Part shown: piece by piece, positions 19,466 to 58,580 of the stretch
Layout: each line of letters opens with the position of its first letter
Position numbering within the stretch: the stretch's first letter is position 1
Assembly (NCBI GenBank): GCA_002409965.1
Contig: DHON01000112.1
Coordinates: 555-64,554, forward strand
DNA from: Firmicutes bacterium UBA5389
GTDB lineage: Bacteria > Bacillota > DTU025
Direction: 5' to 3'
Length of the DNA: 64,000 nucleotides
Notes under the pieces: generated by a model
What the model was told of the DNA's origin: nothing
The model's input: only the letters and a program-made list of their open reading frames with translations
Databases searched by the model: none
Program-made: the position numbers and the translations under genes

Positions 19466-20074
19466 TCACTCGCTCAGCGCAGGTAGCGCTCCACGGGCGA
19501 ACAGCGTGTACGCCTGGTCGGTCACGCCGCACGAGTCGGATACCATGCCGCTCGCGAGCCACTGATAGGCGACAGCGTGCACCATTCCGAGCAGCGCGTA
19601 CGTGAGTTTGGCAGGGTCGAAGTCGTCCGACACCAACCCTGAAGACATACCTTCCTCGACAATGGACTGAGTCAAACTAGTGAGGAATGCTGTACCCTCC
19701 ACAACACGTCTACCGAGTTCCGGCGAAAGCAGCCCGAGCTGGCGCGACAGAAGCAGCATGAACTCCTTTTCCTGGGCGTAAAAGTCGAAATGCGCCCTGA
19801 TCAGCGCCCTCAGCTTGGCATGCACACCGGATGCAGTCGTAACTGCTTCGGTCAGCATCTGTGTAAGCCTGCCGGTCCGATCATCCATGAGCTCGGTCAG
19901 TAGCTCGTCCTTGCTCTTGAAGTACAAATAGATGGTCCCCTTGGCCACTCCGGCAGCTTCGGCCACAGCATCCATGGTGGACGTGTGGAATCCGCTCTCG
20001 GCGAAGACGTGCTGCGCTGCGTCGAGTATCGCCCCCCGCCTATCGGTGATGCCGCCTTGACACGTGCCGTCCAT
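19466..20074 (-). CDS. TetR/AcrR-family transcriptional regulator
   Basis: N-terminal HTH ILDAAQHVFAESGFHTSTMDAVAEAAGVAKGTIYLYFKSKDELL. ATG 20074 with a GGAGGTG RBS. Confidence 0.8.
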   Translation of the reverse strand: MDGTCQGGITDRRGAILDAAQHVFAESGFHTSTMDAVAEAAGVAKGTIYLYFKSKDELLTELMDDRTGRLTQMLTEAVTTASGVHAKLRALIRAHFDFYAQEKEFMLLLSRQLGLLSPELGRRVVEGTAFLTSLTQSIVEEGMSSGLVSDDFDPAKLTYALLGMVHAVAYQWLASGMVSDSCGVTDQAYTLFARGALPALSE

Positions 20075-20278
20075 GGGATGACCACCTCCCCGTCCCCTCT
20101 AGTAGTGCATTTTCTCCTTCGATTGTACATCTCCTTCACGCAAAGGCCAACTCACCATCGCAAGGCGGCACGCGGCGCGGGGGACGGAGAGATGTGGGAG
20201 AGGACCGAACGCTGGAGATCATTCTGAGCCTGCAGGATCAGTGCGACTTTGACGGGATCCTCAGGCGCGTTTGTGCTA

Positions 20279-20307
20279 TTGACATCTGATGCCTGCAGAG
20301 GTATTGT
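20279..20307 (+). promoter_or_regulatory. Near-consensus sigma-70-type promoter: TTGACA-N17-TATTGT
   Basis: TTGACA at 20279-20284, a 17-nt spacer, TATTGT at 20302-20307. Lies in a 595-bp intergenic region. Confidence 0.45.
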
Positions 20308-20360
20308 AATGGTGCTAATGCAACGACTCGCCAGCTCGTCTGGCGATGGAGGTGGGTTTG

Positions 20361-20432
20361 ATGTCGGTAGTCATGAACAGGTTCAGTCTACTTGAATATC
20401 GTCCCACCCACCTTTCGTCGGTTGCGGCATAG
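20361..20432 (+). CDS. Candidate 23-codon small ORF (MSVVMNRFSLLEYRPTHLSSVAA), preceded by a GGAGGTGG RBS 5 nt upstream
   Basis: Read directly: RBS 20348-20355, ATG 20361, TAG 20430-20432. Located between the promoter above and the terminator below. Could equally be part of a non-coding RNA. Confidence 0.25.
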   Translation: MSVVMNRFSLLEYRPTHLSSVAA

Positions 20433-20528
20433 GGAACGTCTGTTCGTATTCTGAGCGTCATCTATGATGGCGTGCGGTTCACCGCGTAACGCGTGTGACG
20501 GATAGACACCGTATGAACAAGTCGCGTG

Positions 20529-20560
20529 CGCGCCAGCGAAAGCGGGCGCGTTTTTCTTTC
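20529..20560 (+). terminator. Rho-independent terminator: CGCGCC-N10-GGCGCG stem followed by TTTTTCTTTC
   Basis: 6-bp GC stem (20529-20534 / 20545-20550) plus a U-tract at 20551-20560. Confidence 0.5.
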
Positions 20561-20582
20561 GCGCTCAAGTTCAGTGTCAAGC

Positions 20583-20632
20583 GACCGCGGGTGGAGACAG
20601 GATGCGATGAACCGGCATCTCCGTCCGCGGTC
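20583..20632 (+). other. Large nested stem-loop (GACCGCGG...CCGCGGTC, 8 bp, with inner GGAGA/TCTCC) immediately upstream of the rsgA RBS
   Basis: Inverted repeats read directly. Possible attenuator or leader structure for rsgA. Confidence 0.3.
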
Positions 20633-20669
20633 TTTCACATGTACACAATGGCAGGAGGATTGAGCAGCT

Positions 20670-21605
20670 TTGGTTCCAGACCAGCTAGAGGGTATCGTCA
20701 TACTTGCGTCTTCAGGGTTGTTTCAAGTGGAGACAGCCACTGGCGTGATCCATTGCATGGCCCGGGCAGGCGCGGATCCGGGCAGCATTGTGCCGGGAGA
20801 CAGGGTGCTTGTCGCCCCGCAGCCGGCCGGCAGGGGCGTCATCGAATCGATGATGCCCAGAAGGACCCGGTTCTCACGGAAGGTGGCCGGCCGTCGTCAG
20901 GATGAGCAAGTGATCGCAGCGAATCTGGATCAGGTGGTCATCGTGCTTGCGGCATCCGAGCCGCCTTTCAAAGAGACCACCTTGGATCGGTATCTTGCCT
21001 CGGCGGAACACTGCGGATTGGATGCCGTCGTCTGCATAAACAAGGTCGATCTGGCGTCTGCCGCGAACTCGGCGCCCGCTCCCAACCTGGCACAACGCGC
21101 GGATGTGTACGCCCGGATTGGGTACCTGGTGATCATGACATCCGCCGCGCTCGGCAACGGCATCGACAGGCTCAGGCAGGCGCTTGCCGGCCGCGTCTCG
21201 GCGTTGGTCGGACCGTCCGGCGTGGGCAAATCCTCGCTCATATCCGCAGTCTCGCCCGGGGTCAGCCTTGCCACAAGCGACATAAGCGCCAGTACAGGCA
21301 AAGGACGCCACACAACCACTTGCTCTCGCCTGATCAAGCTGGGCGTTGGGAGCTACGTAGCGGACACGCCCGGGATGCGGGAGTTCGGGTTCCACAGAAT
21401 TTCCCAGGGCGAGCTGGCGTGGTGCTTCCGGGAATTTCGTCCGCATATGGAGAAGTGCAGGTTCGACGACTGCAGGCATGTCAAAGAACCCGGCTGCGCC
21501 GTGCGCAAGGCCGTAGAGCAGGGCCTGGTGTCAGAGGGCAGATACGAGCACTACCTCCGCTTGATGGGAGGCGGCGGCCATGGCAACCACATCGTTGTCT
21601 GCTAG
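20670..21605 (+). CDS. rsgA: Ribosome small subunit-dependent GTPase A (circularly permuted GTPase)
   Basis: OB-fold N-terminus. Permuted GTPase motifs (NLDQVVIVLA...CINKVDL...GPSGVGKSSL...DTPG). C-terminal zinc-finger cysteines CRFDDCRHVKEPGC. TTG start with a GGAGGA RBS. Confidence 0.8.
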   Translation: MVPDQLEGIVILASSGLFQVETATGVIHCMARAGADPGSIVPGDRVLVAPQPAGRGVIESMMPRRTRFSRKVAGRRQDEQVIAANLDQVVIVLAASEPPFKETTLDRYLASAEHCGLDAVVCINKVDLASAANSAPAPNLAQRADVYARIGYLVIMTSAALGNGIDRLRQALAGRVSALVGPSGVGKSSLISAVSPGVSLATSDISASTGKGRHTTTCSRLIKLGVGSYVADTPGMREFGFHRISQGELAWCFREFRPHMEKCRFDDCRHVKEPGCAVRKAVEQGLVSEGRYEHYLRLMGGGGHGNHIVVC

Positions 21606-57061: not shown

Positions 57062-57206
57062 CCGTGCCACCCTCCGGTGTATGTAGGCGCCGCCCCCCGC
57101 CGGCAGCATTCCTCACACACACTGCGTTGATGCCTCGGATGATTCTAACACGCAAGCAGCGTGAAACATGTAGATTGGTCTAGGGGCGGCCCATGAAAAG
57201 ACGACA

Positions 57207-58580
57207 TCAAATGTGTACTGCTCGCCCCATAACCGCCTCCGCCGCCTCCGCCGTGGATTCGGCCAGAGTAGGATGGGCGTGAATGGTGTGCTCGATGTCT
57301 TCCAGTTTGAGGCGGCGCGACACGGCCAAGGCAATCTCAGCAATGAGATCGGACGCGTGCGCGCCAACAACCTGACCCCCGATCACCCGACCGGCGCTGT
57401 CGACGATGATCTTGACGAATCCCTCCGGCGCGCCCATAGCCATCGCCTTGCCTGATGCCAGGAAGGGGAACTTGCCCACTCTGTGGTCGATGCCCGACTC
57501 GAGCGCGCTCCGCTCCGACACGCCCACCACGGCAATCTCCGGGTTCGTGAATATGCAGTTCGGGACGGCGTAATACTCCATGCTGCGGTTCTGGCCAGCC
57601 GCGTTGGCTGCCACTGCAAGGCCTTGTGCAGAAGCAACGTGAGCCAGTTGCGACTTGCCGGTGACATCGCCGATCGCCCAGATCCCTGCCACGTTAGTCC
57701 GCATGCGCGAATCCACGACGATCTCTCCGGAATTGCCGGTCTCGACGCCTACATCGGAAGCGCCGACTCCGCCTGTAGTCGAGCGACGCCCCACCGACAG
57801 CACGCCCTTCTCGGCCGCTAGCGTCTTTCCGTTCTCGCAAGCCGCTTCAACTCGGCCGTCCGCGACCTTCACTTCAGTTATCTTCGTCCCGGTGTGTATC
57901 CTAATACCTCGTTTCGCGAAGGCCGTGCGCACCACAGCAGCCACATCGTCATCGACCATAGGCAGTATGCTGGGCATTATGTCGACCAGAGTGACCTCAC
58001 AGCCGAACGCGCGAAAGATACTGGCGAATTCGCATCCGATCACCCCGGCCCCCACGATCAGCATGCTCTCCGGCAGTTCCTTCAGCTTCAGGACATCCTC
58101 GCTGGTAAGCATGTTGACTCCATCATACCCGAACATCCTCGGGGCAATGGGCTCAGACCCTGTGGCGATCACAATGGTGCGTGCTTCCAGCCGCGTGGTC
58201 GACCCGTCCAAGGCCGTCGCCTCAACCGCGCGCGTGCCGGCCAGCGTGCCAACGCCGCTCAATACGTCGATCTTGCGTCTCTTAAGCAACAAGCCGATGC
58301 CGCCGCGAAGCCTCGCAACCACCCTGTCTTTCCTAGCCATCACACGGGCGAAATCCACCCGCGCTTCTGGGATGACGAGCCCCAGATCCGCGCCGCGGCT
58401 CACCGCATCCATGACATCCGCTGTGTGGGCAAGAGCCTTCGTGGGTATGCAACCTCGATTGAGGCACGTGCCTCCGAGCTGACCTTTCTCTACGAGCGCC
58501 ACCGACAGGCCGTTCTGGGCGGCTCTGATGGCGCATACGTAACCCCCTGGACCTCCGCCGATTATCACGATATCGTGCAT
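57207..58580 (-). CDS. lpd: Dihydrolipoyl dehydrogenase (E3 / L-protein)
   Basis: MHDIVIIGGGPGGYVCAIRAAQNGL...GGTCLNRGCIPTKAL redox-active disulfide. Start at ATG 58580 with a GGAGGA RBS. The 298-codon N-terminal extension of the opposite-strand track ORF is discarded. Confidence 0.9.
   Translation of the reverse strand: MHDIVIIGGGPGGYVCAIRAAQNGLSVALVEKGQLGGTCLNRGCIPTKALAHTADVMDAVSRGADLGLVIPEARVDFARVMARKDRVVARLRGGIGLLLKRRKIDVLSGVGTLAGTRAVEATALDGSTTRLEARTIVIATGSEPIAPRMFGYDGVNMLTSEDVLKLKELPESMLIVGAGVIGCEFASIFRAFGCEVTLVDIMPSILPMVDDDVAAVVRTAFAKRGIRIHTGTKITEVKVADGRVEAACENGKTLAAEKGVLSVGRRSTTGGVGASDVGVETGNSGEIVVDSRMRTNVAGIWAIGDVTGKSQLAHVASAQGLAVAANAAGQNRSMEYYAVPNCIFTNPEIAVVGVSERSALESGIDHRVGKFPFLASGKAMAMGAPEGFVKIIVDSAGRVIGGQVVGAHASDLIAEIALAVSRRLKLEDIEHTIHAHPTLAESTAEAAEAVMGRAVHI

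Follow-up and report, generated by a model that had tools for sequence, protein, structure and literature searches.

The rsgA gene of Firmicutes bacterium UBA5389 is preceded by a structured interval that is probably the 5' leader of the rsgA messenger RNA (mRNA) and a transcription attenuator controlled by ribosomes on a small upstream open reading frame (uORF). To our knowledge, the regulation of ribosome-assembly GTPases such as RsgA in bacteria is poorly understood. The interval (positions 20075-20669, ~600 bases) lies in a stretch of 64,000 nucleotides (nt) of contig DHON01000112.1, hereafter the window, and is flanked by a divergent TetR-family gene and by rsgA, both confirmed by Pfam. 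Here, we show by comparison with relatives, RNA folding and shuffle controls that the interval contains conserved elements, mutually exclusive helices and a reading frame that has been kept. A preliminary description, made from the sequence of the window, had listed a promoter, a 23-codon open reading frame (ORF) with a strong ribosome-binding site (RBS), a terminator and a second hairpin, all of which exist in the sequence at the positions it gave, and had offered two explanations: an independent small RNA (sRNA) or small-protein gene, or a leader-peptide attenuator of rsgA. Of these, the attenuator is favored and the independent gene disfavored as the primary function, because the element is constantly linked to rsgA, no promoter-like site lies between the terminator and rsgA, and exclusive, compensated helices join the uORF to the second hairpin.

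The linkage to rsgA rests on relatives from several sources. A genome scan with RsgA gave the close relatives L001-L003, look-ups of RsgA homologues (48-74% identity) gave L026-L042, and metagenomes were scanned for the pattern GGAGGTGG-N40-56-CCCACCCACCTTT, that is, a Shine-Dalgarno sequence (SD), a gap and an anti-SD. The pattern scan returned 11 loci, of which seven are true copies, all seven 5' of rsgA; the matches L016, L020, L024 and L025 have none of the other leader features and were rejected as chance. The resulting 16 distinct leader sequences, the window included, fall into three subclades whose RsgA proteins are 48-83% identical: subclade A (the window, L001, L002, L003, L017 and L018), subclade B (L026, L030 and L033) and subclade C (L031, L034, L036, L038, L040, L041 and L042). 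In all 16 the leader lies directly 5' of rsgA, despite flanking genes that change with the subclade (TetR/glpK; a DUF362 ferredoxin; DUF4342; ERCC4 and others). Promoter, uORF, SD:anti-SD pairing and second hairpin all recur upstream of rsgA in the relatives, and the terminator is present in 14 of the 16. A covariance model (CM) of the SD/anti-SD domain, R1, finds one copy per locus at 63-102 bits, the window scoring 102, and no further copy in the window or elsewhere in 340 kb of searched DNA, nor any in the chance loci. Neither regular expressions nor the CM detect a leader at the distant rsgA genes of L004-L014 (29-46% identity), or in L043 and L044 (48% identity, another lineage), where rsgA stands in an operon with an ABC ATPase gene. 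The SD/anti-SD domain is 81-89% identical between the window and close relatives, compared with 76-78% for the rsgA coding sequence (CDS).

The point that the preliminary description had missed, and that would make the locus a switch, is a second pairing partner of the anti-SD of the uORF: the 5' arm of the second hairpin. We distinguish four segments (Table 1): the uORF SD (segment 1), the anti-SD (segment 2), and the 5' and 3' arms of the second hairpin (segments 3 and 4). Of these, the first and the third are each complementary to the second. Pairing of the RBS with a C-rich segment downstream had already been proposed; it is present in the minimum free energy (MFE) structure as GGAGGUGGGU:ACCCACCUUU and is conserved in relatives. 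Covariation was tested on 12 sequences, whose four segments were aligned from anchors and without gaps. Pairing is 98% in the core of the 1:2 helix, which hardly varies. For the 2:3 helix it is 83%, compared with 38-44% when the partner is slid; this helix contains five compensatory pairs, and none of 500 shuffles reached its covariation score. For the 3:4 hairpin the figures are 90% paired versus 38-52% slid, with four compensatory pairs. As the covarying positions of segment 2 (columns 50-51 of A5) fall outside the 1:2 core, they argue specifically for the 2:3 helix. This helix reaches 12 of 12 base pairs (bp) in distant relatives; the complementary strands are UGCCUCACCCAC : GUGGGUGAGGCA in L036, CGCCUCACCCAC / GUGGGUGAGGCG (CGCC... 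: ...GGCG) in L038 and CACCUUACCCAC : GUGGGUAAGGUG in L041, and L042 matches L041 but for one G·U pair. In 13 of 16 sequences, segment 2 has no better duplex partner in the 500 nt downstream than the 5' arm of the second hairpin. Duplex energies in the window are -26.0 kcal/mol for 1:2, -20.3 for 2:3 and -29.1 for 3:4 (ranges over the homologues -18 to -27, -19 to -31 and -16 to -39, respectively), and such a balance is typical of classical attenuators.

The start and the frame of the uORF have been kept, while its peptide has not. SD, ATG and TAG of the 23-codon ORF are where the preliminary description had put them, with the spacing GGAGGTGGGT-N3-ATG; an ORF listing opens the frame at an upstream ATG at 20346, which is missing in L002 and L003, so that 20361 is the conserved start. 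All 16 homologues have an ATG or GTG 5-6 nt past a strong SD, and in all 16 the frame is open through segment 2, where the anti-SD is read as ..ACC CAC CTT (T-H-L or a near variant); among close relatives the segment 2 region is an invariant 24-mer. The distance from the start codon to this ACC is 45, 48, 51 or 54 nt, always a multiple of three, and MAFFT places gaps of 3, 6 and 9 nt between the two. The start codon always begins with A or G, even though this base covaries with the one it pairs with. The peptides, by contrast, are 23-34 residues long and wholly different between subclades outside the pairing-constrained T-H-L; among the 16 we found no run of one amino acid or repeated residue class kept across subclades, and no RLR motif. 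A kept start and frame with a variable peptide is the signature of a leader peptide, for which translation matters and the product does not, and the conserved SD, the start codon and the in-frame indels suggest that the uORF is translated. In subclade C, an [A/G]TG-TGA start-stop pair lies two bases 5' of the GTG that opens the long frame (L034 2551-2556, L036 2156-2161, L038 2388-2393, L041 2354-2359).

Segments 1 and 2 belong to a larger domain, P2, whose outer stem is GCAAC/GAC : GTC/GTTGC. The domain further comprises the SD:anti-SD helix, an inner stem containing the start codon and, at 20328-20346, a small hairpin named P1. Pairs of the outer and the inner stem covary (alifold), and a 253-nt transcript folds with z = -3.3.

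The near-consensus promoter described earlier holds up against shuffles and among the homologues. It matches the consensus at 10 of 12 positions, the region 19800-21000 has two promoter-like sites where shuffles predict 0.3, and the -35 box TTGACA/TTGGCA, the 17-nt spacer and the -10 box TAnnnT are kept in all 16 sequences. Its position predicts a transcription start site at ~20314. In the same scan no promoter-like site appears from the terminator to rsgA, and in L036 none between the second hairpin and the downstream genes. The canonical intrinsic terminator that had been placed at 20529-20560 corresponds to T1, at 20528-20559. A simple terminator scan overlooks T1 in the window because of an internal mismatch; in L036 and L041 the scan does recognize T1 as an intrinsic terminator, T1 shows compensatory changes among close relatives, and in the homologues that have it, it lies between segments 2 and 3. 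Termination at T1 would release an RNA of ~245 nt, still the expected default product. The second hairpin (20583-20632) is real too, although its stem is of ~15 bp and not 8 as described; we name it T2 because it is scored as an intrinsic terminator in L036 and L041. In the window it ends 21 nt 5' of the rsgA SD.

Table 1. Features of the rsgA leader and its flanking genes in window coordinates.
Feature	Position	Strand	Sequence, extent or basis
TetR-family gene	19466-20074	minus	divergent from rsgA; Pfam
Sigma-70-type promoter	20279-20307	+	-35 TTGACA 20279-20284, 17-nt spacer, -10 TATTGT 20302-20307
P2 domain (proposed anti-antiterminator)	20320-20425	+	MFE structure, alifold, CM R1
Segment 1, uORF SD	20348-20357	+	GGAGGTGGGT; pairs with segment 2
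uORF, 23 codons	20361-20432	+	MSVVMNRFSLLEYRPTHLSSVAA; ATG 20361, TAG 20430-20432; frame runs through segment 2
Segment 2, anti-SD	20400-20419	+	CGTCCCACCCACCTTTCGTC; complementary to segments 1 and 3
Variable spacer with unconserved hairpins	20433-20527	+	alignment of relatives
T1, intrinsic terminator (predicted)	20528-20559	+	GCGCGCCAGCGAAAGCGGGCGCGT plus TTTTCTTTC; -16.5 kcal/mol
Segment 3, 5' arm of second hairpin	20583-20597	+	GACCGCGGGTGGAGA; pairs with segment 4 or segment 2
Segment 4, 3' arm of second hairpin, and tail	20618-20645	+	TCTCCGTCCGCGGTC (20618-20632), then tail TTTCACATGTACA; forms T2 with segment 3
rsgA SD	20654-20659	+	GGAGGA, 5' of TTG 20670
rsgA	20654-21605 including SD; CDS 20670-21605	+	TTG start 20670, 311 amino acids; Pfam RsgA_GTPase, E = 7e-54

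How could these elements work together? The leader has the parts from which a uORF attenuator is built: a short leader ORF with SD and start codon, a terminator before the gene and, for T2, exclusive helices. From this arrangement we infer translation of the uORF, termination at T1 and T2, dependence on a ribosome, the sign of the regulation and the physiological signal. Transcription would begin at ~20314, and the nascent RNA would first expose the SD and the start of the uORF and, ~45 nt later, the anti-SD. If segment 1 were free of ribosomes, 1:2 would zip into the long P2 helix, an anti-antiterminator, and T1 and T2 (3:4) would form; most transcripts would then stop, mainly at T1, as the ~245-nt leader RNA, and little rsgA mRNA would be made. 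If instead a 30S subunit or a ribosome occupied the SD, the start or the early codons, through frequent initiation or arrest near the start, segment 2 would be left free and could capture segment 3 before segment 4 is made. This antiterminator would block T2, and RNA polymerase would proceed into rsgA. A ribosome that had reached the stop codon would leave segments 1 and 2 free to re-pair, returning the leader to the off state. Because the fully folded RNA hides its own SD, initiation would have to fall in the brief co-transcriptional interval before segment 2 emerges.

Several observations weigh against this attenuator, or limit it. In the window itself the 2:3 pairing is modest, amounting to 6 bp and 3 bp and including a bulge, and 3% of shuffled arms do as well. 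When a ribosome-sized mask is placed on segment 1, segment 2 or the stop codon, T1 and T2 stay in every equilibrium MFE structure; as they persist, any switch has to be kinetic, and thermodynamic folding alone neither demonstrates nor rules out one. T2 of the window, with a 20-nt loop and a U-tract of only UUUC, would be a weak terminator, and the generic scan of the window flagged it no more than it flagged T1. In subclade B the second hairpin is shaped differently and has no U-tract, so that translation or RNA stability may be what is controlled there. Independent covariation events are few, as the 12 sequences represent two to three subclades. The simplest regulatory sign, by which more initiation leads to more RsgA, is not homeostatic. 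Finally, T1 lies between segments 2 and 3, and RNA polymerase must read through it before the 2:3 switch can matter; we found no conserved anti-T1 strand in the subclade of the window. Positions 20464-20485 of the spacer are a candidate lineage-specific anti-T1 strand (duplex -18.7 kcal/mol), complementary in the window and L001 only. Another candidate, the P1/SD-proximal pairing CUGGCG:CGCCAG, is compensated in L030 and L033 (CAGGCG:CGCCUG) and broken in L001, L002 and L026. It is only in subclade C that an anti-T1 strand is seen: there, a stretch just 3' of segment 2 (GGGGCAUG) is complementary to the P2 5' strand and to the T1 5' arm (CAUGCCC), and a single strand could oppose both terminators.

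Could the unit from the promoter at 20279 to T1 instead be an independent gene for a ~245-nt sRNA and/or the 23-residue peptide, acting in trans, for example through the C-rich anti-SD, with rsgA a separate unit? C-rich stretches are typical seeds of Firmicute sRNAs, and a strong promoter with a canonical T1 would indeed yield a discrete RNA with extensive structure. Attenuator leaders, rli80 among them, were themselves first catalogued as sRNAs (PMC6310831). We give this explanation a slim probability. The element is never found away from rsgA, neither among the true pattern matches nor by the CM search, and no promoter-like site separates T1 and rsgA. Segment 2 covaries with segment 3 beyond T1, which implies that a longer transcript is under selection. 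Moreover, the C-rich stretch is buried in a 10-bp helix, and the peptide, unconserved between subclades, is kept only where RNA pairing constrains it. A further explanation would make the uORF incidental and the leader autoregulatory through a bound protein: the SD:anti-SD helix would mimic the 3' end of 16S rRNA and be recognized by RsgA, a 30S protein or an assembly factor. Segment 2 (CCCACCCACCUUUCG) resembles the 16S anti-SD tail CACCUCCUUUC, although any sequence complementary to an SD will show this likeness. RsgA works close to the 16S 3'-end region of the late 30S subunit. Ribosomal genes are commonly autoregulated through mimicry of rRNA, one example being the rplJL leader (PMC4538822). 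Protein binding would, however, leave superfluous a start codon at SD spacing and a frame kept over three indel sizes, and the leader has no conserved unpaired nucleotides or internal loops that would suggest a protein site, the P2 loop varying freely; we consider a protein-binding leader distinctly improbable.

It seems comparably improbable that control is mainly post-transcriptional, with the second hairpin and its GUACA tail affecting the stability, processing or translation of rsgA mRNA and the 2:3 pairing acting as the toggle. In the window and in subclade B, the hairpin lies 10-21 nt 5' of the rsgA SD and its U-tract is poor or missing, which would suit such a role, as would the unexplained conserved motif YRTGTAC[AC] that follows the hairpin. 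In subclade C, however, a gap of 100-450 nt separates the hairpin from the next start codon, and with its tract of 4-5 U it is scored as an intrinsic terminator; the complementarity of segment 4 to the rsgA ribosome-binding region is at the level of shuffled sequence. A conserved, structured leader with terminators 5' of a GTPase gene could also suggest a metabolite riboswitch, in which, for instance, an alarmone or guanine nucleotides would govern the terminators. At the gathering threshold, no Rfam family matches the window or nine homologous loci; this extends the earlier failure to match 6S, SRP, tmRNA, RNase P or T-box features to riboswitches and to r-protein and rimP leaders. A permissive E-value scan of 19900-20900 gave sub-threshold matches only, of which BjrC68 and ctRNA_p42d fall on T1 and are terminator-shaped, and the others are due to chance. 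The conserved part is one long, near-perfect helix, with neither a multi-helix junction nor a conserved unpaired pocket, and the ligand suggested by the conserved SD, start codon and frame is the ribosome, making a riboswitch very unlikely indeed.

What would the uORF attenuator sense? Candidate signals are the capacity for translation initiation, immature 30S subunits and antibiotics that arrest ribosomes at the start codon. Two physiological readings fit: a sensor of stalled starts, which would respond to start-arresting antibiotics, as at vmlR and hflXr, or to sluggish immature 30S subunits, and a sensor of translation capacity, in which segment 1 would stay occupied as long as initiation is frequent. 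A more specific idea, which we put forward tentatively and think unlikely, is that the leader directly senses the quality or availability of 30S subunits. The internal anti-SD would then rival the anti-SD of 16S rRNA for the uORF SD over the co-transcriptional interval of ~45 nt, and slow or arrested initiation complexes, such as those formed by immature 30S subunits when RsgA is limiting, would hold segment 1 and let the anti-SD strand disarm the terminators. If true, this would be a feedback loop in which an assembly GTPase is transcribed in response to defective small subunits, and the first reported cis-acting RNA device to couple the maturation state of the 30S subunit to the expression of an assembly factor.

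The interval has further features of its own. Its GC content is locally lower, as had been noted (~0.55-0.56 versus 0.62-0.66 in the flanks), and it is probably also the largest gene-free interval of the window, as claimed: a crude ORF tiling ranked it second, but the bigger "gap" at 57110-57893 carries an ORF of 509 amino acids (aa). From the uORF to the second hairpin, the spacer is 39-57% identical to close relatives and has large indels. Two other ORFs of the interval, of 79 aa on the minus strand and of 136 aa on the plus strand overlapping rsgA, sit in this variable, indel-rich spacer, are unconserved and were rejected. The short palindromes GAACagGTTC and GCGGTtcACCGC, pointed out before, are present in the window, and relatives have not kept them. 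An imperfect inverted repeat, CCTGCAGGATC-N16-GATCCTCAGG (20229-20266), lies just 5' of the -35 box and is a possible operator or other regulatory site; within it, GACTTTGACGG is common to L001 only. On the minus strand, the promoter-like TTGGCC-17-TACAAT (20122-20150) fits the divergent TetR gene, and conservation of 20085-20145 with L002 and L003 is consistent with a TetR promoter/operator region apart from the rsgA leader. The suggestion that the TetR gene could regulate the leader was not borne out, since TetR adjoins it in subclade A only. On its other side, rsgA is followed by a convergent KduI-like gene and is for that reason monocistronic in the window.

Some sequences around the second hairpin and rsgA stand apart from the proposed switch. 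Sequestration of the rsgA SD by segment 4 upon formation of 2:3 was considered and rejected, as the duplexes are no better than those of shuffled sequence. Segment 2 is predicted to form a still stronger duplex (-22.6 kcal/mol) with GGAAGGTGGCCGG in the rsgA CDS (20874-20905, codons ~68-78), and likewise in L017 and L018; this is probably incidental to a conserved protein motif. The YRTGTAC[AC] motif (CATGTACA at 20638-20645 of the window) occurs 5-10 nt past the second hairpin in subclades A and C, and we found neither a pairing partner nor a function for it in the window, L001-L003 and L034-L042. In subclade C, an ORF of 67-78 aa, very basic and with an acidic tail, lies between T2 and rsgA, its stop codon overlapping the rsgA start (ATGA); it spans ~2806-3004 in L034, 2772-3008 in L036, 2787-3008 in L038, 2805-3008 in L041 and 2799-3008 in L042, has no Pfam match and is absent from the window. 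ABC-2-type membrane genes lie 3' of rsgA and on its strand in L040 (3951-6626) and L041 (3972-4763), in L040 together with an ABC ATPase gene, and in the leaderless L043 (1603-2511) an ABC ATPase gene overlaps the rsgA start, a hint that this rsgA lineage is connected to an exporter. In subclade B, the database RsgA models P0019, P0020 and P0021 (L026, L030 and L033) have N-terminal extensions of 20-60 aa into the leader, and the real start follows a conserved CAGGAGGAA/CAGGAGGCA SD. The leader motif also corrects miscalled rsgA starts in this clade. As a new RNA motif (CM R1; 16 distinct sequences), it can serve to annotate an uncultured high-GC Bacillota clade from digesters and biogas reactors.

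The rsgA leader has the structure of a ribosome-mediated attenuator and lies outside the hflX, trpL-type and curated Rfam families. Our literature searches found no described leader or attenuator for rsgA, and the leader is most likely a switch of an established kind, acting on a gene for which none had been described. It shares with trpL, pheL and hisL the four segments with exclusive 1:2, 2:3 and 3:4 helices, a leader ORF that overlaps segments 1 and 2, and 3:4 as the terminator. In contrast to these, it has no run of regulatory codons and its peptide varies; as segment 1 is the initiation region itself, the readout would be the occupancy of the start region and not the supply of one aminoacyl-tRNA. 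The tet(M) gene of Tn916, which encodes another ribosome-binding GTPase, is likewise preceded by a leader (orf12) that combines a short ORF, an RBS for this ORF and terminators, and its transcription attenuation is coupled to translation of the leader. That leader differs in sequence and in proposed logic, the pace of leader translation being set against that of RNA polymerase, and it serves a mobile resistance gene, not a housekeeping factor.

Closer parallels come from two systems in which the switch has been established experimentally. In the vmlR leader of Bacillus subtilis, a uORF lies in the anti-antiterminator of a three-layered anti-antiterminator/antiterminator/terminator arrangement (PMC9226507), as the uORF of rsgA does, and a ribosome arrested at or near the start opens the stem in favor of the antiterminator, as we propose for rsgA. 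The vmlR uORF has three codons and a single-stranded SD, whereas that of the rsgA leader has 23-34 codons, a paired SD and a frame that reads through the antiterminator strand; vmlR also has a hairpin that sequesters the SD of the main gene, and none was detected in the rsgA leader. The same attenuation logic operates at hflXr/rli80, which controls a ribosome-associated, ribosome-splitting GTPase (PMC6310831), and a related motif, uORFC-6-1, is found upstream of hflX in Bacillales (PMC8632094). Like rli80 of Listeria monocytogenes, a constitutively transcribed short leader RNA ending at an intrinsic terminator (PMC6310831), the rsgA leader combines a small ORF with alternative terminator and antiterminator folds 5' of the gene for a GTPase that acts on the ribosome, and read-through would likewise need a ribosome held on the small ORF. 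It has no sequence or Rfam relationship to rli80 or uORFC-6-1 and lacks the RLR stalling motif, its peptide being unconserved. Furthermore, its uORF SD and start belong to the anti-antiterminator helix, it has two tandem hairpins or terminators, and the gene it would regulate serves 30S assembly and is not hflX. The design is unusual in that the anti-SD strand locking the uORF SD would also serve as the antiterminator, which would make it a clean system in which to study how the kinetics of initiation are turned into a transcriptional decision. If the proposed mechanism is true, an assembly factor joins hflXr, vmlR and other ABCFs, erm and tet(M) among the few ribosome-associated genes known to be ruled by the behavior of ribosomes on a uORF.

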